Below, in pieces: positions 28,318-40,945 of a DNA stretch of 64,000 nt; the stretch's first letter is position 1; every line of letters starts with the position of its first letter. Location of the stretch: NCBI GenBank assembly GCA_048882045.1, contig JBHLRZ010000014.1, positions 18,708 through 82,707 of the forward strand. Reading direction: 5' to 3'. The notes beneath the pieces are model-generated. The model saw only the letters and a list, made by a program, of their open reading frames with translations. It made no database searches and was not told the origin of the DNA. The position numbers and the translations under genes were made by a program. The stretch comes from Candidatus Thorarchaeota archaeon. Its GTDB lineage: Archaea > Asgardarchaeota > Thorarchaeia > Thorarchaeales > Thorarchaeaceae.

Positions 28318-30354
28318 ATGGAACATTTTGAAATACGAGCAAAGGATGGTCTCGCACGACTTGGACGGTTTACAACCAAACACGGCACTGTAAAGACTCC
28401 ACTTCTTATGCCTGTGGTTCATCCAGGAAAGTCTGTGATTAAACCTCAAGAGCTTGTAGACCACTTTGGATTTCAAATGGTAATCACCAACTCCTACATC
28501 ATTCGGTCACATGACAAGTTCAAAGATATAGCAGTTGAGAAAGGAGTTCATAAACTTCTAAGTTTCAAGGGGCCAATCATGACTGATTCAGGCACCTTTC
28601 AGATGTATTTCCATTCTTTGCCAGAGGAGGAGATTGATCCTCTCGAGATTGTTGAGTTTCAGAAGTCTATCGGAGCAGACATCGGTACCATTCTGGACGT
28701 TTTCTCTGATCCAAAGGTCGGAAAGTCAAAAGTCGAAGAAGACATGCGGGTTTCTCTTGAGAGGGCGGAGATGTCTGTTGACAAGAAAGGAGAGATGATG
28801 CTTGCAGGGACCGTCCAGGGAGGAATCTATCCTGACCTTCGTGAAGCTTCAGCGAAGGTTTTAGCAACTCTTGACTTTGACGTTCATCCTATAGGTGGCG
28901 TTGTTCCTCTAATGGAACAGTACCGGTATGCGGATATGGTGAGGGCTACTCTTGCAGCCAAGAAGCATCTACCGCTTGACAGACCAGTACATCTATTCGG
29001 TTGTGGCCATCCTATGCTTTTTGCTCAAGCTGCACTGCTTGGATGTGATTTGTTTGATTCGGCCTCTTACGCTAAATTCGCTGAAGCTGGGCGGATGATG
29101 CTTATCACTGGTACAGTTCATTTGGACCAATTAAACGAATTACCATGTGAGTGTCCAGTATGCAGTAATACAACTGCTCAGGAATTGAAAGGCCTAGAGA
29201 GAACAGAGCGGGATCTACAATTGATGAAACATAATCTGTACATATCTGCTGCAGAAATGCGACGAGTGAGACAGGCCATCTCGGATGGGAAACTGTTCGA
29301 ACTCGCAGCTACACGTGCTCAAGCTCATCCAACACTCCTAGAAGCGTTCAGTACAATGATGGACCACAGTAACATGTTGGTGGACTCGGACCCCATTGGG
29401 AAGACATCCTCAATATTCTATACTGGTCCTGAAACAATCAATCGACCAGAATTGGTAAGTTTCCATCGCCGCACTTTCGAAACGTATCCATACAGAAACA
29501 CGAAAACAATAATCATCGTTCCAGATGACGCTAACCGACCGTACACGGAAAGTGCAGGTACGATAATCAGCGAGGTCAGAAAAAGAAGCGATAAGGAAAT
29601 CATTCTCTTGTTTCTAACCCCCTTGGGTGTTGTTCCTTGGGAACTTGAACATGTTCATCCAGCCCAACAGGGAGTCTTTCCAGAAACCATCGATGAAACA
29701 ACGATTAACATCGTTCAACAGAAACTCCACAAGTTCCTTGAAAGCATCACCTACAAAGATTTGATCTGGTTCGAGCGACCAGCAGCGACGAACACAATCA
29801 TTGAATCAATCAAGTCCAGAGGAAACGTGGACATCCTAGACTCGGCTTCAGCTGTGATTGACAGACTTGGGGATTCGCCTGATGATCCACAAGACTGGAC
29901 CCGAAGGAAGCTCAGAGCCATACTTTCGTACCAGTGGGGCTCAAAAGTTTCAGGACTAGCTGACCACCAGGACTTGAAAGTAGAAATCTCGAGAAGTACT
30001 GGAAAGATACGACAGATCAAGTTGGGAGATGAAATCATCTTGACCCTTGTGCCGACAACTGGGCTCTTTACAGCAACCTATGAGGGTGGTCGCCAACTCA
30101 TAGAACATGGACTGGATTCAAAGTATAAGGTCAGGCTTGACGACGAGGTCCGCCAGTTTGTCATAGATGGAAAGTCAGCCCTAGCAAAGTTCATTGTACA
30201 TGCCAGTCCTGAGCTCCGTGCAGGCGAGGAGATTGCTGTAGTGGACAGTTCCAACATTCTACTAGGTGTAGGAAAAGCACTACTATCTGGAAGAGAGATG
30301 ATGACATTCCAGCGAGGAGTCGCTGTAAACATCCGGCATTCTCTGAAGAACTAA
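28318..30354 (+). CDS. tgtA: Archaeosine tRNA-guanine(15) transglycosylase with PUA domain
   Basis: TPLLMPVVHP, MTDSGTFQ, IGGVVPLME, HLFGCGHP, FDSASY, CECPVC zinc site, C-terminal PUA. Confidence 0.95.
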   Translation: MEHFEIRAKDGLARLGRFTTKHGTVKTPLLMPVVHPGKSVIKPQELVDHFGFQMVITNSYIIRSHDKFKDIAVEKGVHKLLSFKGPIMTDSGTFQMYFHSLPEEEIDPLEIVEFQKSIGADIGTILDVFSDPKVGKSKVEEDMRVSLERAEMSVDKKGEMMLAGTVQGGIYPDLREASAKVLATLDFDVHPIGGVVPLMEQYRYADMVRATLAAKKHLPLDRPVHLFGCGHPMLFAQAALLGCDLFDSASYAKFAEAGRMMLITGTVHLDQLNELPCECPVCSNTTAQELKGLERTERDLQLMKHNLYISAAEMRRVRQAISDGKLFELAATRAQAHPTLLEAFSTMMDHSNMLVDSDPIGKTSSIFYTGPETINRPELVSFHRRTFETYPYRNTKTIIIVPDDANRPYTESAGTIISEVRKRSDKEIILLFLTPLGVVPWELEHVHPAQQGVFPETIDETTINIVQQKLHKFLESITYKDLIWFERPAATNTIIESIKSRGNVDILDSASAVIDRLGDSPDDPQDWTRRKLRAILSYQWGSKVSGLADHQDLKVEISRSTGKIRQIKLGDEIILTLVPTTGLFTATYEGGRQLIEHGLDSKYKVRLDDEVRQFVIDGKSALAKFIVHASPELRAGEEIAVVDSSNILLGVGKALLSGREMMTFQRGVAVNIRHSLKN

Positions 30355-31499
30355 TTCGTCGGTTCTTCAGCTACTGCATAGAGAGGATGACCAGGTATCT
30401 TCCTAAGCGCATCAACTCCGCCCATAGGTAGGACCATCATCTGTGATGTTGGTGAATATAAACGAATAGGGGCACCTCGCTGCACATCAGCCTCTGGTGG
30501 GAGGAGTGAAACTGCGGAAATGTTGCCCACATTAAAATGGACTTCAACATTACTACCCACAAATATTACTTGGCTGATTTCACCAGCTATTTCATTGTCG
30601 CTATTACTTGTTGGTTGGACATGAAGATCCTCTGGCCGAACAGCACATCGGACATGCTCACCGACCTCAAAGGGATAGTTCTCAACCGGAGATAATCCTC
30701 TCACAGTTTGACCATCAGGCAGGTTGACTGTAAGCTCGGTCCCAATAGTGGATATCTCGCCATCAAGGAACGTACACTTACCGATGAAATCTGCAACAAA
30801 CAGGGTTTGTGGTTTGTCATAGATCTCTCGAGGTGGATCATACTGCTGGACATATCCAAGGTCCATTACTGCGACCATGTCAGAGATACTGAGAGCCTCA
30901 ATCTGGTCGTGAGTGACATACACAGTTGTGATGCCCAACTCTCCTTGAATTCGAAGAATCTCCTCACGCATCTCGTTCCTCAACTTCGCGTCAAGGTTAG
31001 AGAGTGGTTCGTCAAGGAGAAGCACATCCGGTTCGATAACTAATGCTCTTGCAAGAGCAACACGTTGCTGTTGTCCTCCTGAGAGTTGGTGAGGTGTCCT
31101 ATCACCGAGACCTCCCATCCGTACAAGTTCGAGAGCGTTATCCACACGTGACTTGACAGCAGCTTTTGTAAATTTCAATCCCTGAACACGTTTCAGCTTG
31201 AGTCCGTACGCAATGTTGTCAAATACTGTCATGTGTGGCCAGAGCGCATAATTTTGGAAACACATACCAGTATTCCTCTTGTTCGGAGGAACTTCGGTCA
31301 TCTCTCGGTCATCGAAAAAGATCTGACCTCTATCGGGAACATAGAATCCTGCTATCAGACGTAGAAGAGTTGTCTTTCCACAACCCGATGGACCTAGGAG
31401 AGTGGAGAGTCTTCCATCCTGTAGAACCATATTCACATCATCAGTGGCTACAACTTCACCAAACGTCTTTCGTAAGTTCTTTAGTGTGATTTCAACCAT
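30351..31499 (-). CDS. ABC transporter ATP-binding subunit (Fe3+/polyamine/sugar-phosphate type, TOBE domain)
   Basis: [47 protein letters not shown]. Confidence 0.95.
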
Positions 31500-31509
31500 T
31501 ATATTCACC

Positions 31510-33561
31510 TCAGATTCCTGTCATGGCAGATGCTCTGGTCTTCAGGATAGCATTGGTAACTGCTATCACAACCATTTGCATAACCATCATGAGAACACCG
31601 AGAGCTGCCGCGGGTCCGATTCCATATGTTGGCGGTAGTCCCGCGTACGTTTCATTAATCCAATATGTTAACGGTGCCTGATAGTAATTGGCACCACCGA
31701 GTAACAGACTCGTACTGACTTCACTCACGCAATATACGAATGAGAGAAGTGCTCCAGCAAGTACACTGACTCCAATTAATGGGACAACAATGCTCGTGAA
31801 AGTCTTATTTCTACTAGCCCCAACATTTTGCGCCGCTTCTTCTAACACCACAGGCGTCTGTTGCATCCCTGCATACGCTGCACGTACTGTGAATGGAAAC
31901 TTCCTCACCAAGAATGACATGATGATTAAGAACATTGGCCCATCGATTGGGAAGAATGGAGTATTGTAGAACAAGGTGAAGTATCCAGTAGCAATAACAA
32001 TACCTGGCAGAGCAATTGGAGATGTTACCAGCATGTCCAATGCCGTGCGACCCGGAATCTTCCGCCGAGATATGATGTATGCAGCAGATACTCCAAGCAG
32101 TACAATACCAAACGTTGCCACTGCAGCATAGCCTACTGTCCGAGTAAACGCCCCTTGTATGTCACCATTCCCTAATATCGCGTAGTTATTCCATGTTAGT
32201 GGTGGAAACAGCTCACTCGACCGATACTGAGAGAACGACAACAGTATAACACTAATCTGCGGTATTAGAGCGAAGAACAGAACTGGGATAATTACTAGAA
32301 ACATCAAAATCCAGGTCCTAGTTGAGAGGTGCCTAGTGCGTGGATTCCACTGACCACCTTTGCTCGCTGAAGCATAACTTCGCAAAGATGCGTATTTTCT
32401 GATGGCTAAGAAGCCCGACAACGCAAATACAAGCAAGATCATTCCTATCGCAGGACCCAATGGGTTGATATCCCCCGATTCGGCAATGATGCTGTCAAAC
32501 ACTTGGAACGCTAAGGTCTTCTGTGCTTGCAAATCCTCAGCATACACAATGGGAGTTCCTAGGTCCTCAATGCTAAGAATGAATGTGAGAATTGCTCCAG
32601 CTTGAATGCCTGGCATCGCCAATGGAAGAGTGACAGATCTAAAAAGTTTGAAGCCAGTTGCTCCCAAGTTTTCTGCTTGTTCCTCTAATGATGGATCAAT
32701 TCCCATGAACGATGAATAGGCATTGAGGTAAACTAGTGAAAAGAGCGAGAATCCTTGTACTATTATGATCGCCGCCAATCCATGGAATTCGAATCGAGTC
32801 CACTCCAAACCAAACAAATCAAAGAATGCAGCCGCCAAGTTGTTCAAGAAACCATTGGCACCCAAAAACCACTTGATTCCCATGGCGCCGATGAATGGAG
32901 TCGAGAGCATTGGAAACAGCAGGAGAGTCCTGAGAACACCCTTACCCGGAAATTCATAGCGTGCAATGATGAAAGCAAATCCAGTTCCTAATACAACCGA
33001 GATGATAGTGACGAAGACTGCAGAATACACAGAGTTAAGAATAACTCCAAGATCAATACCCCAGATCTCAATGTATCCAGCACCCGTTGGACGAATCCAG
33101 TTGAAGTCTGTAGGTTGCCATTGGGGAACATAAAATGCATTATTGAAGAGTTGAGTTATCAGATTCAATGAAACGCCAGTATCAGTCACAAATGAACCCC
33201 AAACCACACTGAGTAAAGGTGCAATCAAGAAGAGTCCGAACACAAAGATGATTCCAACTAGTTGAACCCAACTTAGAGTGTCCATCTCTCTTCCCATCTC
33301 TTCTGCATAAACACCCATCCTTTTTGAGAATCGGCGGATACTCTGTCCTGGATCAAGGAAGAACCGATACAGACGTATAATTCCGCGATAGATCCATTTG
33401 AAGAACGCTAGGATTCGATTACCAAGGCCGACAAAGAAACCTATGATAAAATAGCCTATTGAATGGAGGTCGATGGGAGCAGAGGACTCCATATCTTCAG
33501 GAATAACTTCAGATCCCATTTCAGTATCGAATTCACTCAGCCCCACATCTTCCACATCCAT
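31510..33561 (-). CDS. ABC transporter permease, duplicated (FbpB/AfuB type)
   Basis: Two EAA loops (LEEQAENLGA, LEEAAQNVGA); about 12 TM segments. Confidence 0.92.
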   Translation of the reverse strand: MDVEDVGLSEFDTEMGSEVIPEDMESSAPIDLHSIGYFIIGFFVGLGNRILAFFKWIYRGIIRLYRFFLDPGQSIRRFSKRMGVYAEEMGREMDTLSWVQLVGIIFVFGLFLIAPLLSVVWGSFVTDTGVSLNLITQLFNNAFYVPQWQPTDFNWIRPTGAGYIEIWGIDLGVILNSVYSAVFVTIISVVLGTGFAFIIARYEFPGKGVLRTLLLFPMLSTPFIGAMGIKWFLGANGFLNNLAAAFFDLFGLEWTRFEFHGLAAIIIVQGFSLFSLVYLNAYSSFMGIDPSLEEQAENLGATGFKLFRSVTLPLAMPGIQAGAILTFILSIEDLGTPIVYAEDLQAQKTLAFQVFDSIIAESGDINPLGPAIGMILLVFALSGFLAIRKYASLRSYASASKGGQWNPRTRHLSTRTWILMFLVIIPVLFFALIPQISVILLSFSQYRSSELFPPLTWNNYAILGNGDIQGAFTRTVGYAAVATFGIVLLGVSAAYIISRRKIPGRTALDMLVTSPIALPGIVIATGYFTLFYNTPFFPIDGPMFLIIMSFLVRKFPFTVRAAYAGMQQTPVVLEEAAQNVGASRNKTFTSIVVPLIGVSVLAGALLSFVYCVSEVSTSLLLGGANYYQAPLTYWINETYAGLPPTYGIGPAAALGVLMMVMQMVVIAVTNAILKTRASAMTGI

Positions 33562-33585
33562 GGTGTTGTTAGATTATACGAGTCA

Positions 33586-35013
33586 TCACGGAGTGAGGTA
33601 TGCGTTCAAATCTGCGAGCGTGTCCAAATACTGTTGATTGGCTGCTGCAGTCCATACTGTCTGCATGTTATAATAGAATGTGCTATCAGAGATCATCTGG
33701 TCGTTGATTTGCTTAGCAAATGCTATTGTAAAGTTGGTAGGTGTGCTCTCATAATCGATTGTCACAGGACGACCCATCATGACTGCCCAATCATCGAGTT
33801 GTTCAATTGTGATGTCTGAGGCCAAATAAGCACTGACCAGCGCATCCCAACAAAGGACTAGGTTGTCATGCGCATCATTGAACACAGCCTCAAAGTAGGA
33901 AATGAAGGCTGTATTGATTTCCACAGACAGAGTATCATTGAATTCGATACCAGATGTTGCAATAGTCTGATTATAGGTTTCGTACAGATCCTGGAAACCC
34001 TGACCGTATGGAGTCAGGAAGGCTGATCCAAGTACAGGCATCCTACTGACACCAGGTGTGAGCCAGACTGCTTGCCCTTCAGGAGACAAGACAAAGTCAA
34101 CAAAACCTTCAGCCAAGTCCATCTTTGGTGTGTCCTTCACAATAGCAATAGGGTCACCATTGACGATTGTTTCACCCTCAGGAATGATGTACTCACAGTC
34201 TGGATTGTTTGCCTGCGTGTTGTAACCATAAAAGTCAATTGACATTGCAACACCGACTTCTTGGTTCTCAACTGCTGCCTGGGTCTGAACAGATCCAGGA
34301 TACAGACGAGCACTTCCAGCCATTCTGGCCATTGTGACCCAGCCCGCATCCCAACCCATTCCTTGAGTAATGATCTCATAGATACGGGTATTGGATGTTG
34401 TTGCAGGTGCGTTACCCATAGCTATTGTGGCAGTAGGCAACAGCGAACCCCAAATGGGCTGAGCAAGATGTGTCCAGTTGTTTGGTGTGGGAAGACTGTT
34501 TGCGTCAAGGAATGCATGATTCACTGTGAAGCCAAATGTCGAGATAGCAGCGGCAACCCACACAACATCACTATTTGTATCGCGACGCTTCATATCGGTG
34601 TTGGCAATCTCATCAGGAACCCTATCAACGACTGCCTCAATTGAGGCCCAGTTTAAGGGCTCAAGATTACCATCTCGTTGCATTTGGTCAAATAGAGTGG
34701 GTCCGCCACCCCATAAGACATCAACTCCTCCGGCAGCGATAACATCATCCCAGAAACCACCATCTTGCGTCTTCCAAACAACATCTGTAATTCCATTATC
34801 AACAGCAAAATCTGATGCTAAGAATGCTGTTTCATATGCTGCGTGAATGGCAACGTCGTGACGAGTAAGAACAGTAATGCTCTGTCCAGGACCTGCTGGT
34901 CCACCCAAGTTAAGAACAACTATGGCACCACCAGTAACGACGACACCAATTACTACGACAGCAATAACTATCGTTTTCATATTTCGTGTACTTTCGAACT
35001 CTCCGGCCATCAA
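33586..35013 (-). CDS. ABC solute-binding protein (FbpA/AfuA-like) with N-terminal TM anchor
   Basis: DVLWGGG, FGFTVN, P.NW..LA.P, IDFYG, NGDPIAI, FVDFVLS.EGQ. Confidence 0.85.
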   Translation of the reverse strand: MMAGEFESTRNMKTIVIAVVVIGVVVTGGAIVVLNLGGPAGPGQSITVLTRHDVAIHAAYETAFLASDFAVDNGITDVVWKTQDGGFWDDVIAAGGVDVLWGGGPTLFDQMQRDGNLEPLNWASIEAVVDRVPDEIANTDMKRRDTNSDVVWVAAAISTFGFTVNHAFLDANSLPTPNNWTHLAQPIWGSLLPTATIAMGNAPATTSNTRIYEIITQGMGWDAGWVTMARMAGSARLYPGSVQTQAAVENQEVGVAMSIDFYGYNTQANNPDCEYIIPEGETIVNGDPIAIVKDTPKMDLAEGFVDFVLSPEGQAVWLTPGVSRMPVLGSAFLTPYGQGFQDLYETYNQTIATSGIEFNDTLSVEINTAFISYFEAVFNDAHDNLVLCWDALVSAYLASDITIEQLDDWAVMMGRPVTIDYESTPTNFTIAFAKQINDQMISDSTFYYNMQTVWTAAANQQYLDTLADLNAYLTP

Positions 35014-35320
35014 GTATCACCTTTTTGAGATAAACTTCTATTGATGTAATCTCACCGTCCCTTTTCAAAGCTCCTCTCAAATCTGCTAAGACTCGACACA
35101 ACTAAGTGTAGTATTAAAGCTTTGTCACCAATGCTCATGTGTTTATGGGCACACGTCCATTCATGAGGATTTGTTCGACATTTTGCTATTTGTTCAACAA
35201 TCGATGTTAGCTTCGACACAAAACGTAGAAGAGCCTAAAAGCCTAAATACTCATCACCTTTGTAACTGCTTACGTTTCGAGTACTCTTTTCAAGAAGATT
35301 CGAAGGAGGACAAACACGCG

Positions 35321-36352
35321 TTGAATACATACTTGAGGACGCGAAAGATTGCAGCAGTATTTCTACTCGCAGCACTTTTTGCTCCATATTTTATTAGCGT
35401 CGGTGTTGTCCCACCAAAAGTTGTAGGTCAAGAAGATCCACTAATTGTGATTGACATGACCCACGGTCAGTACTCTTCATACGTATTTGGAGAGGAAGAC
35501 ACTTGGTTGGAAAACAACCTGACTGCTATGGGATACGACGTGGTGTTCGCGTATGGTGGTCTTAACGACACCATTCTAGCGGATGCTGACGGTCTACTAG
35601 TCGGTGCTATCTATGGTACCAGCAACGGATTTACTAATCAGGAAGTCACTGATGTAGCTGATTGGTTTAATGCAGGTGGTAAGTTCATGTGGGTCGGATC
35701 TGACTCTGACTACGCAGGCTATGCCTACATCAACGCCAACTCATCACTCATTCTCGATGCTGTTGGTTCACATGTCTACCCTGAAGCCATTTCGATCAGT
35801 GATGCTATTTCCAACTGCAACGCTTCATACAGAGTCGTTGCGAACAAAACAAGCACTAATGCATTCGTTGCTAACATTGTTGACGGTGTCGATGCAGTAC
35901 TGATGCACGGTCCAACCTCACTCTACGGAAGCACTTCCGGAGCTGAGGGTACTGATGTTGTTGCACTTGAAACCACAACAATTGCCAACGTCTATCCAGT
36001 TCTCTATTACGGAGCTTCTGCAACCATTGGAGACTCTGACCTTGTTCCACCACTCGCAAACGATGATGGTGATTCAGGTGAGTTTGTCGCAATGACAATA
36101 GAGATGAATGCTGGAGAAGCAGGAACAGGTGTGATCATTGTTTCAGGTGCATCACCATACGGTGACTACCAGCCAATGTTCACAACTGAGTACTATGATG
36201 TACCACTAAATGGCGACGCACTTGTCAAACAGGCAATCGAGTTTGGCATGAATCCACCCACTGGGTTTGCAATTGATCCATTGCTTCTGATGGGTATTGC
36301 TGGCGCTGTAATTGTAGTCATCATCGTTGTAGTCGTATTGAAGAGAAGGTAG
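35321..36352 (+). CDS. Surface-anchored protein with GIFT/DUF4350-like domain
   Basis: Signal peptide; IVIDMTHGQ...L.D.D.L....FT..E...V.DW...GG; C-terminal IDPLLL + TM + KRR; TTG start follows GGAGG. Confidence 0.7.
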   Translation: MNTYLRTRKIAAVFLLAALFAPYFISVGVVPPKVVGQEDPLIVIDMTHGQYSSYVFGEEDTWLENNLTAMGYDVVFAYGGLNDTILADADGLLVGAIYGTSNGFTNQEVTDVADWFNAGGKFMWVGSDSDYAGYAYINANSSLILDAVGSHVYPEAISISDAISNCNASYRVVANKTSTNAFVANIVDGVDAVLMHGPTSLYGSTSGAEGTDVVALETTTIANVYPVLYYGASATIGDSDLVPPLANDDGDSGEFVAMTIEMNAGEAGTGVIIVSGASPYGDYQPMFTTEYYDVPLNGDALVKQAIEFGMNPPTGFAIDPLLLMGIAGAVIVVIIVVVVLKRR

Positions 36353-36404
36353 ATACCTATCTCAATGAGGTAGAGAAATCTACCTCTTCCCCTTTCTTTT
36401 TCTT
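36347..36404 (+). terminator. Hairpin + T-tract terminator candidate
   Basis: AGGTAGAT 36347-36354 / ATCTACCT 36378-36385, then CTTTCTTTTTCTT. Confidence 0.5.
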
Positions 36405-36513
36405 AATCCCGTTAAGTACCCACTGAATTACAAGATGAAACATAACTATGTTATGGGACACATTTAATTGTGATATCCTCTGGAAGAATAATCAGAGGTC
36501 TGCGATATTGAAG

Positions 36514-38970
36514 ATGCACTCAAGGATTCTGATTGTTGCTCTCTGTATAGTGTTATTCACAATACCTGTATTGTTTTCAAATTCTAGTATGATCACGCAC
36601 CTAGATAGTACACCAGAAGCCAAAGCTGTTGTAAGTCAGGCGGGTCAAATGGTTCTTTTTGATGAAGCTCATTGCGCTTATGGAAGCGCGGCATTCACGC
36701 CTGGGAATGCTTCGCTTTTTGCTTGGATTCTTGAGGAACACGGATATGACACAGATATGAACTTCGACCAACCTCTCGACTCAGGAATACTCAGTGGGGT
36801 TGACGTTCTCATCCTAGTCTTCCCAATGGTTGCATTAACTGCAAGTGAGATTACAGCTGTTGAGAATTTCGTTCAGGCGGGTGGGGGGCTTCTCCTTGTT
36901 GGTACTGATAATAATCCAGTATGGGGATTCACACCATTCAATCTCAATGCTCTTTCGCAGACATTTGGTATCACTTTCAGTACAGATGTAGCTGATTCGT
37001 GGTTGGACAAAACTACCGAATTGGATACTCATCACCTGACATATGATGTAAGTTCAATTCATTCTAACATAGACTTCAAATTGAGAGGGACTATACTCAC
37101 GGTTGAAAGTCCAGCTTCCACGATTGTTGAACACGATGGAGATCCAGTTGCTGCGGTTTCTGAATATGGAACTGGCAGAGTTGTAGGTGTTGGCTCTCTC
37201 GCGCCTTTCTTGGAGTACCGTGAAGGAACTATAATGCAGAATGAGAAGGACGACCTATTCCAATTCTCACTTAATACTGTAGACTGGTTGGCTGGTAATT
37301 CACCCAGAAAAGTTACTGTCCCAGAGATAGCTGTGATTCCGGTGGGCTCGGGACCGTCTCTCTCAACAGCAGAGGTTGAGGGATACAGAGCATATACTGG
37401 AACCATCCATGACCACACAGTTCATAGTGATGGTGCTGATACACCTGGAGATATGCTGTGGGCGGCTGTAACAAGAGGGCAGGACTACTTCATCATGACA
37501 GACCATAGCTATGAATCTCCCAATCCTCTAGGACTGGGTGGTGTGACGGGAGGATTTGCCATGAGGGCAATTGCTGAAGCCAGCGGGTTAGACATAGAGA
37601 TATTCGCTGGAGCAGAGCTTTCAAGAGGGCATCATTCATTGGCGTTTCCATTGACAGAGAACATCTACACAGATACTCAAGAAGGGATGATCGCAGGTGC
37701 TCGAGCACAAGGTGCGTTCATCTCTCTATGTCATCCAACAATTGCAGAAGGTTATCTGGTTTCTTACGAAAACTTTGAAACATTGGGTTATGACGCCCTA
37801 GAAGTGACAGATGACAGCTATTCGCACGGTCTTTGGGACGAGGGGTATACAAAGAACTTCTACGGTGGCAATGATGGACACCAGTACGAGGATGTCGGAA
37901 ATGTCCTCAATGTTGTGTTTGTCGACAATCCTACAGGACCTGATGGGAGACTCTCCGCAACGGATATCATCGATGCCATTATGAACAAGAGAATTGTGGT
38001 AATAGACAAGTATCAAGATATAATCTATGGACAGCAAGTCTGGTTGGATCGATATTTTGACCTTATGGAAACAGCAGAAACTGATATTGCAGCCGCATCC
38101 GCTTTGGTAGAATCTGCAGGTGGAAATGGAACATCTCTCGCAGAACTCTATCTGAGAGATGCACAAAGGGCATACAGTCAGGGGAGTCCCCAACGAGCAA
38201 TCTTTGCTGCTGCAAATGCAACATCTGATGAGGCTTTGAACATATCAATTGAAGTCATTGAGCCACCAGAACCCCGATACATATACCCTGAAACGAATCA
38301 CGACCTCACATTGAATGTTTCAAGTTCTATTGGCAATTCGGTTCAATTCAATATAACACCATATAGAGTAGTAGGATTTTCGTCTGGTGTGATTAACGAA
38401 GAAGTCATTATACCTGCAAGTGGTCATACAAGTTGGACAACTTCAGTTACGACACCTCTAGAGGGTTATTGTGCATTGATATTCAATCTTCATGAGTTTA
38501 ATACAACTACGAAGCTATCGCCTGTAGTTTATGGTGTAGGTGAACTTACGAATGTAGGTGTACATTATGAGATTGAAAGAGATGTGGACGGAACATATGT
38601 GACCGCACAGTTTGCAATTGTGCGAGGTAATCATCGGTTGCTCAGTGGTGCAATAGGGTTCTATAATGATGGTTCCGGTGAGCAAAACATCACTCTCGCT
38701 ATAAGAACGAACGTTATTGAGGGGACCATTGGCCCATATCTTAAGGGAACAATAATCACACTCCATGCAGTCATATACGACGTGTTTGGAGGAGTGTTCG
38801 AATCACCTGACGTTCAATATACTGTCACAACTGATCCTCTTGAACCAACAACCACAGCAACTGGCCCACCTCCAATTGTGATTGATCCATTGCTGTTGGG
38901 TGCCATTGCTGTTGGTGTTGTTGTTGTCATCGTGATAGTGGTAATGTTGATGAAAAGGAAGGGAACCTAG
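36514..38970 (+). CDS. Surface-anchored protein: GIFT/DUF4350-like domain + PHP metallophosphoesterase + beta-rich domains
   Basis: VLFDEAH domain; PHP motifs HDHTVHSDG, TDHS, GAELS, CHP, GNDGH; C-terminal IDPLLL-TM-KRK. Confidence 0.8.
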   Translation: MHSRILIVALCIVLFTIPVLFSNSSMITHLDSTPEAKAVVSQAGQMVLFDEAHCAYGSAAFTPGNASLFAWILEEHGYDTDMNFDQPLDSGILSGVDVLILVFPMVALTASEITAVENFVQAGGGLLLVGTDNNPVWGFTPFNLNALSQTFGITFSTDVADSWLDKTTELDTHHLTYDVSSIHSNIDFKLRGTILTVESPASTIVEHDGDPVAAVSEYGTGRVVGVGSLAPFLEYREGTIMQNEKDDLFQFSLNTVDWLAGNSPRKVTVPEIAVIPVGSGPSLSTAEVEGYRAYTGTIHDHTVHSDGADTPGDMLWAAVTRGQDYFIMTDHSYESPNPLGLGGVTGGFAMRAIAEASGLDIEIFAGAELSRGHHSLAFPLTENIYTDTQEGMIAGARAQGAFISLCHPTIAEGYLVSYENFETLGYDALEVTDDSYSHGLWDEGYTKNFYGGNDGHQYEDVGNVLNVVFVDNPTGPDGRLSATDIIDAIMNKRIVVIDKYQDIIYGQQVWLDRYFDLMETAETDIAAASALVESAGGNGTSLAELYLRDAQRAYSQGSPQRAIFAAANATSDEALNISIEVIEPPEPRYIYPETNHDLTLNVSSSIGNSVQFNITPYRVVGFSSGVINEEVIIPASGHTSWTTSVTTPLEGYCALIFNLHEFNTTTKLSPVVYGVGELTNVGVHYEIERDVDGTYVTAQFAIVRGNHRLLSGAIGFYNDGSGEQNITLAIRTNVIEGTIGPYLKGTIITLHAVIYDVFGGVFESPDVQYTVTTDPLEPTTTATGPPPIVIDPLLLGAIAVGVVVVIVIVVMLMKRKGT

Positions 38971-39034
38971 TACTGTGAGATGGATATCAGTTGGGCATAC
39001 CACTTAATAGCCAAAAGCTTCCTCTTAAGAATTC

Positions 39035-40945
39035 ATGAGGAAGCAATGGCTTATCATGGCACTCTTGCTAGTGCCATTAGTATCAGTAGCTGTGGTTTTT
39101 CCCAATGCCAAACCTGTAGACGCATGGGGATTGACAACCCATCAGTTCCTAGTTACGGAGGCGTCTAGTGGTATAACAAATGCTAGCTGGGCAGCAGCAT
39201 TTCAATACTACTCGCCAGAGCTCTTGTCTGGTTCTACAGCTCCCGACCAAGCTTGGCAAGACTGGGACAACCATCTCTACTATCCTGAAACAGGAGAACA
39301 TGATGCACCATATGCAGCTCAAAGATGGTTTGATTTCGCAGTTGCTAATTTCACTGCTGAAACCTGGGAAGATGGTTTCTTTGCGATAGGTGTTGCATCA
39401 CACTATATGGTGGATCCAGCAATATTGCTGCATACTGATGCTGCGGGAGATCCTGCGGTGTTTGATGGTCATTCAGCATACGAAGGTGATATCAATGCTA
39501 ACTTGGGAAGTCTTACACTTGATACTCCTGGAGAATTTGAGATTGCAAATGTGACAGATAGGGTCGTTCAACACGCTATTTTTTCACATCAGTTCCTTGA
39601 TTATGTCTTAGACGAATACCTGACAAATGAAACAGAAGCAATTGCTACAAACGCGACAATCAAAGCATTCACAGAGGATTGCTTATCCATGGCTCTGAAT
39701 AGCACACTCAGTCTATTCTATACGGCAACACTCGGACTAAATGCTCCGGATGTTACAGTCACATACGAGTACGTAGCACTTGTTGACTACGCTCATACTA
39801 ATGACTATATTGACTACAGTGGAGAGTCCCGATTGGTAGGTATCAACCAGACTCTGGGAAGAGCTGGATTTCAGATGATAAACCATGATACTGCTATCAC
39901 ATCTGGAGCACTTACTGGAGTCGACCTCTTCATAGCGACTTGTGGATTAGACGAATACACGACAGATGAGTTAACTGCGATATCCACCTGGGCGGCATCA
40001 GGCAACAAGACAATCCTTCTCACTGGAAGGGGAGACTTCTCTGAGTATGTAGACACTGCCAGACCAAATCAGATTCTCGAAGCAGTTGGGGCTCACATCC
40101 GTGTCAATGATGACAACGTCTACATGCTAGACACATACAATCTTTGGTACAATGACCTCAACTACATACCTCCATTACCAGACACAGCAGGTTTGATGAA
40201 TGGCGTGAGTACAATTACATTCTATTCGCCAACAAGTCTGTACTTCACTGATGATGGCCCGGTTCTTCCCATCCTCTATGCCAACGTAACTGGTTATCAG
40301 ACAGACCAGATACCACCAGCTCCAGTTGTGATCTATGACAACACTGATGATGGCGAGAATGGTGAACAGATACCACTGGCTGCAATAGAAGAGATTGGCA
40401 ACCTGAGGCTCCTTGTCGCAGGTACGACATTCTTCAGTGACTTCGACTATGGTAAGACTTCCATTTTTGACAATATCATTCTCCTAGAGAACTTCTTGGA
40501 ATGGGCAACGAATCGAACGATTGGCGAAGTATCTGACGTGGATGAGGTCGGACCACGGATTGGAGACGTAGGTTTCACGCCGAGTATGCCCAGCAACACA
40601 CAGGACGTGACATTCACTGCAACAGTTACCGATCCAGGTGGTGTGGACACTGTATCTCTTCAATACGAAGGTGATTCAGGTACGGTTACAGTCGACATGA
40701 CTGCATCTGGTGATGACTACTCTGGTGTGATAACAGGGCTCTCGGATGAATCAATCTTGGTGAAAATAGTAGCAACTGACACAGATGGTAACACTGCAGT
40801 AAGAGGATATTTCACAGTGACATGGGGCGGCGGTGATACAACTCCTCCTCCACCCACACCATTCGATCCAACTCTATTTCTAATGATTGGAGGAGTCGGT
40901 TTGGTCGTGGTAGTGATTGTCGTTGGTATTATGAGACGAAGATGA
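39035..40945 (+). CDS. Surface-anchored Zn-dependent phospholipase C / S1-P1 nuclease-family protein + GIFT/DUF4350-like + Ig-like domain
   Basis: Signal peptide ends at DA|WGLTTH (N-terminal Trp motif), PD, NH, SHY..D, LH, HSAYE; VDYAH domain; C-terminal FDPTLFL-TM-RRR. Confidence 0.8.
   Translation: MRKQWLIMALLLVPLVSVAVVFPNAKPVDAWGLTTHQFLVTEASSGITNASWAAAFQYYSPELLSGSTAPDQAWQDWDNHLYYPETGEHDAPYAAQRWFDFAVANFTAETWEDGFFAIGVASHYMVDPAILLHTDAAGDPAVFDGHSAYEGDINANLGSLTLDTPGEFEIANVTDRVVQHAIFSHQFLDYVLDEYLTNETEAIATNATIKAFTEDCLSMALNSTLSLFYTATLGLNAPDVTVTYEYVALVDYAHTNDYIDYSGESRLVGINQTLGRAGFQMINHDTAITSGALTGVDLFIATCGLDEYTTDELTAISTWAASGNKTILLTGRGDFSEYVDTARPNQILEAVGAHIRVNDDNVYMLDTYNLWYNDLNYIPPLPDTAGLMNGVSTITFYSPTSLYFTDDGPVLPILYANVTGYQTDQIPPAPVVIYDNTDDGENGEQIPLAAIEEIGNLRLLVAGTTFFSDFDYGKTSIFDNIILLENFLEWATNRTIGEVSDVDEVGPRIGDVGFTPSMPSNTQDVTFTATVTDPGGVDTVSLQYEGDSGTVTVDMTASGDDYSGVITGLSDESILVKIVATDTDGNTAVRGYFTVTWGGGDTTPPPPTPFDPTLFLMIGGVGLVVVVIVVGIMRRR

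Follow-up and report, generated by a model that had tools for sequence, protein, structure and literature searches.

A candidate cell-surface module for harvesting organic phosphate compounds in Asgard archaea, built from GIFT-domain proteins and an ABC importer

Introduction

The AfuABC and P5PAB systems of Pasteurellaceae are ATP-binding cassette (ABC) importers that depend on a substrate-binding protein (SBP) annotated as an Fe3+ binder; AfuA binds hexose and heptose phosphates (PMC4546632), and P5PA binds pyridoxal-5'-phosphate (PMC8427247). These bacterial systems come without linked surface hydrolases or a GIFT protein. Here we describe a locus in which a likewise SBP-dependent importer, its SBP again annotated as an Fe3+ binder, is encoded divergently from three surface proteins, which we have named G1, G2 and G3 and which share a GIFT (GldG/IFT52) domain. 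The locus lies in a window of 64,000 nucleotides, positions 18708-82707 of contig C14 of a 3.6-Mb, 93%-complete Thorarchaeota metagenome-assembled genome. We hold with moderate confidence that it is an Asgard cell-surface module harvesting organic phosphate compounds.

In bacterial Pho-type scavenging loci, phosphodiesterases that are secreted or periplasmic are, for example, encoded together with ABC importers of the Ugp or Phn type, and the logic of the present locus is the same. Compared with what is generally known of those loci, its parts are not orthologous, and its enzymes are membrane-tethered and share the GIFT module. The placing of hydrolases beside an importer is ordinary; what is new is that the architecture is linked by GIFT, that a type-I importer has a GIFT-only protein as its constant partner, and that the enzymes are swapped, as described below. 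G1 is like GldG in being encoded beside an ABC transporter, but GldG accompanies an ABC-2-type (GldA/GldF) system without an SBP, whereas G1 stands beside an SBP-dependent type-I importer and in this respect does not follow GldG. Within the set of papers searched, none combines Thorarchaeota with phospholipase C.

GIFT domains sit in IFT52, OST48 and site-1 protease (S1P), and the reviews consulted call their role unclear. Here the domain is found in the archaea most closely related to eukaryotes, joined to enzymes whose active sites can be read and linked to a transporter, and such a locus is therefore a tractable system in which to ask whether GIFT serves for docking, oligomerization or ligand holding. 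Additionally, organophosphate uptake would be a testable role for an Asgard importer family that is publicly annotated as an iron transporter, and it suggests how detrital lipids or nucleic acids may supply sediment Thorarchaeota with phosphorus, or with the carbon and nitrogen of head groups.

Overall organization of the locus

All six genes were found where a first-pass annotation of the window had placed them, and their domains and strands bear out its description of an SBP-permease-ATPase operon divergent from three consecutive secreted, C-terminally anchored proteins. Thorarchaeota and other Asgard archaea are the source of the closest homologues of every protein studied. The features are as follows, in window coordinates.

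30351..31508, minus strand: ABC ATPase (ABC_tran and TOBE_2, from Pfam)
31510..33561, minus strand: fused double permease of 683 residues with two BPD_transp_1 halves (Pfam, NCBIfam)
33586..35013, minus strand: SBP with an N-terminal transmembrane (TM) anchor, of the AfuA/P5PA/FbpA cluster; probable start ATG 34980
35014..35320: divergent promoter spacer with two conserved TATA-like boxes
35111-35119, read on the minus strand: TATA-like box GTATTAAAG, for the SBP operon
35242-35249: TATA-like box CCTAAATA, for G1
35321..36352, plus strand: G1, signal peptide, GIFT domain (residues 37-315), C-terminal TM helix and KRR
36448..38970, plus strand: G2, signal peptide, GIFT domain (residues ~65-290), PHP domain (residues 316-518), helical/beta stalk and C-terminal TM helix
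39035-40945, plus strand: G3, whole gene
39035..39124, plus strand: G3 signal peptide (residues 1-30, ...VDA/W)
39125..39745, plus strand: G3 Zn-dependent phospholipase C (PLC) domain (residues 31-237)
39767..40528, plus strand: G3 GIFT domain (residues 245-498)
40556..40945, plus strand: G3 immunoglobulin (Ig)-like beta-sandwich stalk (residues 508-598), Pro/Thr linker, DP motif, TM helix and RRR tail

G1, G2 and G3 all begin with a signal sequence, and at the other end of each a DP motif leads into a hydrophobic helix followed by a basic tail (KRR, KRKGT or RRR). Together with sequons, the signal peptides and C-terminal anchors predict an outward-facing topology for all three. In the C-terminal motif, (G)F/I-x-I/L-D-P precedes a TM helix and a cluster of Lys/Arg (window positions 36290-36352, 38900-38970 and 40860-40945), and it recurs in GIFT paralogues elsewhere in the genome (L021, L023 and L025; loci are labeled L and families f throughout). 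It resembles the three-part PEP-CTERM/PGF-CTERM sorting signals. An archaeosortase-type sorting signal was considered and rejected, as the 93%-complete genome gives no match to Exosortase_EpsH, and for this reason we treat the C-termini as plain anchors.

The shared domain is a GIFT domain

G1, G2 and G3 recognize one another in pairwise BLASTP (G1/G3, 1e-8; G1/G2, 5e-4; G2/G3, 2e-4), and an hhalign comparison of 62 G1 orthologues with 57 G3 orthologues aligns 225 columns at a probability of 99.2% (E 1.6e-19), so that the shared domain noticed in the first-pass annotation is well founded. All three proteins give weak matches to the GIFT families of Pfam, namely DUF4350 (PF14258), IFT52_GIFT (PF23355) and ABC_transp_aux (PF09822). 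The match of DUF4350 to G2 has an E-value of 2.8e-6 and scores 28.2 bits by hmmscan (cut-off 30.4), and 31.1 bits, above the cut-off, in the genome scan; the scores of G1 (14.3 bits) and G3 (16.8 bits) lie below the cut-offs. Precomputed PF14258/PF23355 matches are carried by many G3 orthologues, and only 2-3 of the 62 G1 orthologues match the Pfam GIFT models at E<0.01. Since the G1 family barely matches these models, its GIFT assignment rests on the fold and on the profile-profile comparison.

The AlphaFold2 model of G1 (pLDDT 89) superimposes on the N-terminal domain of IFT52 (IFT52-N) with a VIA-align 2 Z-score of 19.8 and a root-mean-square deviation (rmsd) of 3.0, with 219/228 residues aligned. 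Human OST48 (Z 18.4), yeast Wbp1 (Z 16.3) and the GIFT-like domain of S1P (Z 16.0) also score highly, while generic GATase1-like and ThuA folds reach Z 14.5 or less; Foldseek agrees. The GIFT model of G3 gives a similar picture, with IFT52-N at Z 22.0 (216/228 residues aligned), OST48 at Z 19-19.8 and the next class at 14.2 or less. Both models are thus closer to IFT52-N and OST48 than to generic class-I glutamine amidotransferase folds, and IFT52-N stands among the top structural matches. From the profile-profile comparison and the fold, which is common with IFT52-N, OST48/Wbp1 and the S1P GIFT-like domain at Z 16-22, we conclude that the shared domain is a GIFT domain, as its early likening to GldG/IFT52 and DUF4350 had proposed.

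The eukaryotic identity of the top structural matches likely reflects the fact that the solved GIFT structures are eukaryotic. By protein-language-model features, the nearest clusters are prokaryotic DUF4350/ABC_transp_aux families. The layout of G1, in which the GIFT domain lies between a signal peptide and a C-terminal TM helix, is common with OST48 and also with arCOG01314, in which a signal peptide, DUF4350 and a C-terminal TM helix are known across archaea (PMC5898192). A specific orthology to OST48 was rejected: OST48_N (PF03345) has no match at E 1 or better across the whole genome, the sole STT3/AglB match lies on contig C11, unlinked to any GIFT gene, and the protein-atlas neighbors are the prokaryotic GIFT clusters. 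Of the 120 G3 orthologues listed, only one carries a precomputed PF03345 match. Eme et al. report WBP1 homologues in Heimdallarchaeia only (PMC10307638), and an identification of G1 as a thorarchaeal WBP1 is not supported here.

G2 and G3 carry conserved metal sites

The catalytic domain of G3 matches Zn_dep_PLPC (PF00882) with 34.6 bits, above the gathering cut-off of 26.8, and nearly all G3 orthologues carry the same family. Its model aligns with B. cereus PC-PLC over 201 residues (model residues 31..236 to chain residues 1..243) at Z 23.6 and rmsd 2.3 in VIA-align 2, with clostridial alpha-toxin N-domains and Listeria PLC next at Z 22. Across B. cereus PC-PLC, Listeria PlcB and the C. perfringens alpha-toxin N-domain, the fold agrees at Z 22-23.6 and rmsd 2.3-2.8 at an identity of 15-19%, and G3 differs from these bacterial enzymes in its added GIFT domain, Ig-like stalk and membrane anchor. 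This PLC-GIFT-Ig architecture occurs only in Asgard archaea among the matches listed.

G3 and the bacterial enzymes have in common nine Zn ligands and an N-terminal Trp created by signal cleavage. In G3 all nine, the mature N-terminal Trp included, are present as W31, H36, D71, H80, H123, D127, H133, H146 and E150, each 90-100% conserved in 57 orthologues at 47-79% identity. The spacings H-x3-D-x5-H and H-x3-E are those of the PLC/P1 trinuclear zinc site; the assignment of each ligand to a PLC position rests on this spacing and on established knowledge of the PLC site. The signal peptide is indicated by a hydrophobic N-terminus, by a pLDDT below 50 at residues 18-30, and by A30 and W31, which are at least 90% conserved. 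Trp31, which follows ...VDA, aligns in the model with residue 1 of mature B. cereus PLC, and therefore the suggestion that signal cleavage exposes the catalytic Trp holds. The trinuclear-zinc PLC-type site of G3 is intact. The domain had at first been described as either a Zn phospholipase C or an S1-P1 nuclease. The PLC half of that description stands; for the nuclease half no support was seen in sequence or fold, as G3 has no Pfam match to S1-P1 nuclease (PF02265) at E 0.1 or better and no nuclease fold appears among the 50 rows shown from Foldseek and VIA-align 2, a listing in which absence does not exclude a family.

C-terminal to the GIFT domain, the G3 stalk is Ig-like in the secondary structure of the model, and orthologues show Big_7 matches in this region. 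Over residues 497-636, G3 matches numerous other surface proteins of the same genome and of relatives at their C-termini.

In G2, the GIFT domain is followed by a region that matches PHP (PF02811) at 1.5e-3 (19.3 bits against a cut-off of 26.4) and, over residues 316-518, the NCBIfam CehA/McbA family NF038032 at 7.7e-12 (45.2 bits against a cut-off of 80). Because these E-values are significant yet the scores fall below the curated cut-offs, G2 is a divergent PHP member at best. The PHP metal motifs (HxH, DH, E, H, H, DxH) are nonetheless conserved, with H321, H323, D352, H353, E390, H396, H429, D476 and H478 invariant in 11 orthologues at 22-60% identity. Judged from this conservation, the PHP metal site is intact, in line with the GIFT-PHP metallophosphoesterase fusion proposed from the first reading of the window. 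With their active sites intact and conserved, both G2 and G3, which are predicted to face outward, look active. The public names for the proteins of the locus are "zinc dependent phospholipase C family protein", "hypothetical protein" and "Fe3+ SBP".

The importer resembles AfuA and P5PA systems

The ATPase matches ABC_tran (6.3e-37) and TOBE_2 (5.4e-9), and its top NCBIfam matches, PhnT2 and PotA, are both below cut-off. The permease is a fused protein with 12 TM helices that matches BPD_transp_1 in two stretches; in NCBIfam it matches PhnU2 over residues 173-672 as well as ThiP-type fused permeases, all again below cut-off. Its BPD_transp_1 halves, together with the SBP, identify the linked transporter as a type-I importer.

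The SBP matches Pfam SBP_bac_6 at 8.5e-16 and is named an Fe3+ SBP by JGI. When a profile of 14 SBP sequences is searched against the PDB, P5PA (6wce) comes first at 2.7e-11, followed by the "iron-compound" SBP 8x1a at 1e-9, HitA at 5e-6 and AfuA (4r72-4r75) at 8e-6. In the HMMER alignment, in which the match is weak and spans one lobe, the phosphate ligand Ser183 of P5PA lies opposite an invariant Ser of our SBP, and the P5PA Ser147-Gly148-Thr149 loop maps, to within 2 residues, onto a Thr/Ser-rich loop that is invariant. Opposite Tyr103 and His203, which contact the ring in P5PA, stand an invariant Trp and an invariant Tyr. The putative counterparts of the phosphate-holding Ser/Thr/Gly loops of AfuA and P5PA are invariant in the SBP family, whereas the matches overall reach no better than E 1e-11 to 1e-5 and cover one lobe, and the window SBP is TM-anchored with a C-terminal extension of ~130 residues.

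In FbpA, a Tyr-Tyr pair provides iron ligands. In an alignment with HitA (6ivy), this pair faces a Phe-Tyr that is invariant in the 14-sequence SBP family, and a classical ferric site in the SBP is therefore unlikely. "AfuABC-type", the label first given to the importer, is a fair one for its neighborhood in sequence space; P5PA and AfuA are the closest solved relatives of the SBP, the iron annotation is shared, and the importer is a putative member of that type.

A G1-type protein is the constant partner of the importer

To examine synteny, genome searches and tblastn were run over Asgard genomes. The family of the window, f1, spans many genera at 50-65% identity and shows the arrangement ATPase<permease<SBP / G1>(G2)>G3. 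G2 is absent from the cluster in three genera (L037-L039) and relocated in one (L036), the loci L053, L055 and L056 hold G1 and G2 without G3, L054 holds G1 only, and G1 is duplicated in several genomes.

Other families rearrange the parts further. In f2, the SBP gene and G1 are adjacent, and G2 and G3 form a separate divergent pair on another contig. In f12, a 758-residue calcineurin-like phosphoesterase (Metallophos and PKD) is encoded inside the SBP operon, as at L029:3925-6201; three genomes have G1 and G3 next to it, and two more genomes have the SBP and G1 alone. In f22, the order is G3, a GIFT-PHP protein and the ATPase, then a G1-like gene directly upstream of the SBP and permease. In f5, which includes two closed genomes, four genomes encode, divergently from the SBP, a 525-residue type-I phosphodiesterase (ENPP-type, PF01663; L047:10862-12439 is one case) at 38-88% identity, and on the far side of the permease there are two G1-like genes.

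Across Asgard families, G1 is the SBP's most constant neighbor. What is conserved is the importer together with a G1-type protein rather than all three surface proteins; G2 and G3 are variably present. The linkage described in the first-pass annotation is thus conserved, and more strongly than could be known from the window, because in other Asgard families a different phosphoesterase superfamily adjoins the same importer; it does not extend to the trio as a unit. Among 201 Asgard genomes, the SBP family is found in 85 and the G3 family in 51. Both occur in f1, f2, f5, f12, f14, f22 and f26; f25 has G3 without an SBP match, and neither was found in the remaining Asgard families of this set, including 0/40 genomes in f9. 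Because related genomes are not independent, this co-occurrence is descriptive only.

In four families, the same importer is adjoined by four different phosphoesterase superfamilies, and in one case the enzyme gene lies within the SBP operon. Such an exchange of enzymes amounts to non-orthologous replacement, which argues for a real coupling, and with one importer beside four phosphoesterase superfamilies a functional hand-off is the best explanation. The swap gives a clean signal from comparison, by which ligands for screening can be chosen.

Two further clusters deserve mention for their neighbors. In the closed f5 genome G051, the permease (L047:5879-9115) has 1078 residues and fuses an LVIVD-repeat beta-propeller to the BPD_transp_1 halves, an unusual extracytoplasmic add-on for an ABC permease; a transglutaminase-core protein of 535 residues (L047:3439-5046) is kept in the f5 clusters L048, L051 and L052. 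In f12, a 411-residue protein with no Pfam match (L029:7808-9043) lies on the opposite strand between G1 and G3 and is kept in L040 and L043. Separately, an apparent fusion of the SBP to a purple acid phosphatase in f22 was rejected, as the 813-residue protein consists of fn3-like Pur_ac_phosph_N modules and has no Metallophos domain.

Proposed function and alternatives

We propose that the tethered enzymes cleave external substrates at phosphodiester or phosphomonoester bonds, and that a small phosphorylated product would be caught at the surface by the AfuA/P5PA-like SBP and imported by the ABC system. The GIFT domains of G1-G3 may be a common module for docking, oligomerization or ligand holding, through which the enzymes would stay close to the transporter or substrate would be held. 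Phospholipid head groups are the first guess for the substrate of G3, given its PLC fold; the partner enzymes may act on nucleotides or other organophosphates. This scheme keeps the core of the first-pass proposal, that surface cleavage feeds the importer, with the active sites, the SBP and the conserved linkage speaking for it, and sheds the trio as a unit and the S1/P1 nuclease.

Several observations weigh against the scheme. The matches of the SBP to characterized proteins are weak and confined to one lobe, and the NCBIfam scores are far below cut-offs. Synteny within f1 is by itself weak evidence, because the flanks, an archaeosine tRNA-ribosyltransferase-like open reading frame (ArcTGT) and the downstream genes, are syntenic too. 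G3 lies ~800 kb from the importer in f5, and many genomes with the importer gave no G3 match. Several substrate classes fit, since each of the phosphoesterase families is a broad one. Lastly, the same genome also fuses GIFT to S8 proteases, so the domain is a general surface module rather than a system-specific one.

Nucleotides are a serious alternative substrate, since the ENPP, Metallophos and PHP families all include nucleotide phosphodiesterases. In its full form, this alternative holds that the locus scavenges extracellular nucleic acids rather than lipids, with G3 as an S1/P1-type nuclease, G2 as a PHP exonuclease or nucleotidase, and an importer that takes up nucleotides. Zn-PLCs and S1/P1 nucleases form one superfamily, and the W1...H6 spacing of G3 resembles that of P1 nuclease. 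Sites of the AfuA/P5PA type hold a ring plus a phosphate, which a nucleoside monophosphate would suit. The evidence from G3 itself points the other way, as S1-P1 gives no Pfam match at E 0.1 or better and the folds matched are those of PC-PLC, alpha-toxin and Listeria PLC (Z 22-23.6), with no nuclease among the 50 rows shown. We consider nucleic-acid scavenging unlikely.

It is also conceivable that the imported solute is an unrelated one (Fe3+, thiamine, polyamine or 2-aminoethylphosphonate (2-AEP), for instance) and that the importer's adjacency to the surface hydrolases reflects shared regulation or inherited gene order rather than a hand-off of product. Fe3+ is the solute in the public annotation, the top NCBIfam matches of all three importer parts are putative 2-AEP (PhnS2T2U2) and polyamine systems, the whole f1 block is syntenic, and G3 is unlinked in f5. 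An unrelated solute would not account for the four phosphoesterase superfamilies that adjoin the same importer in four families; the position of the FbpA-type Tyr-Tyr pair is an invariant Phe-Tyr by comparison with HitA, and the nearest solved SBP relatives bind phospho-ligands. We regard this explanation as less probable again than nucleic-acid scavenging.

A bolder form of the organophosphate-harvesting proposal would make the G1-type GIFT protein a fixed extracytoplasmic accessory subunit of the type-I importer that docks interchangeable hydrolases (PLC, PHP, perhaps S8 proteases) via GIFT-GIFT contacts, so that Asgard archaea would possess a modular hub for exo-enzymes, and would see in the expanded Asgard surface GIFT family the stock from which the domains of eukaryotic OST48, IFT52 and S1P came; taken together, these steps strike us as rather improbable.

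Finally, a role in the envelope or in glycosylation, in which OST48/Wbp1-like GIFT proteins hold lipid-linked glycans while dolichol-(pyro)phosphate carriers or lipids of the cell itself are the targets of the PLC and PHP enzymes, can draw on OST48/Wbp1 among the top structural matches of G1 and G3, on the OST48 topology of G1 (signal peptide, GIFT, one TM helix, basic tail) and on the proposal that GIFT binds sugars or lipid-linked oligosaccharide (PMC7226087), but is very unlikely given that the genome has no OST48_N match and its only STT3/AglB gene is on another contig, that the nearest clusters by sequence features are prokaryotic, that the same architecture is widespread in archaea as arCOG01314 (PMC5898192), and that it leaves the SBP-dependent importer unexplained.

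GIFT proteins elsewhere in the genome

At least nine open reading frames in the genome bear GIFT domains, including two S8 subtilase fusions and several multi-GIFT anchored proteins. A separate protein on contig C12 has a better DUF4350 match than G1 or G3 and is the likelier arCOG01314 member. Of 1.84 billion cluster representatives, a G1-type profile retrieves only 433, some of them tandem arrays or giant proteins. The G1-type GIFT domain is an expanded surface module in this lineage. It occurs as tandem gene duplicates in some genomes (L013, L014 and L038) and elsewhere, as in the proteins P0241, P0264 and P0273, in up to four repeats per protein or inside giant proteins of 3489-4308 residues.

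The two S8 subtilase-GIFT fusions lie at G000:C3:113107-116103 (L022) and G000:C15:24817-29232 (L024). At its C-terminus L022 carries, in addition, a TM helix with a basic tail, and its domain order is that of eukaryotic S1P. Orthology of these fusions to S1P was rejected, as their catalytic domains are nearest to Thermococcus Tk-SP (3afg, 1e-52), with S1P at 1e-21.

Gene starts and the divergent spacer

After correction of the gene starts, the spacer from the SBP start (34980/35013) to G1 (35321) is ~310-340 bp, which agrees with the divergent promoter region of about 300 bp recognized earlier. Both TATA-like boxes recur in orthologous spacers of several genera. An alignment of 11 orthologous spacers, examined for a shared operator, yields only these two boxes and no conserved palindrome.

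G2 probably starts at Met23 (36514). The longest G1 open reading frame, 35171-36352, begins ~150 bp upstream of the start listed above and runs through G1's own TATA-like box. Because this conserved box sits inside the long frame, the real start of G1 is TTG 35321, which is preceded by GGAGG at 35305-35309, or the alternative at 35333; automatic gene calls that take the first start codon would add 50 residues to the protein.

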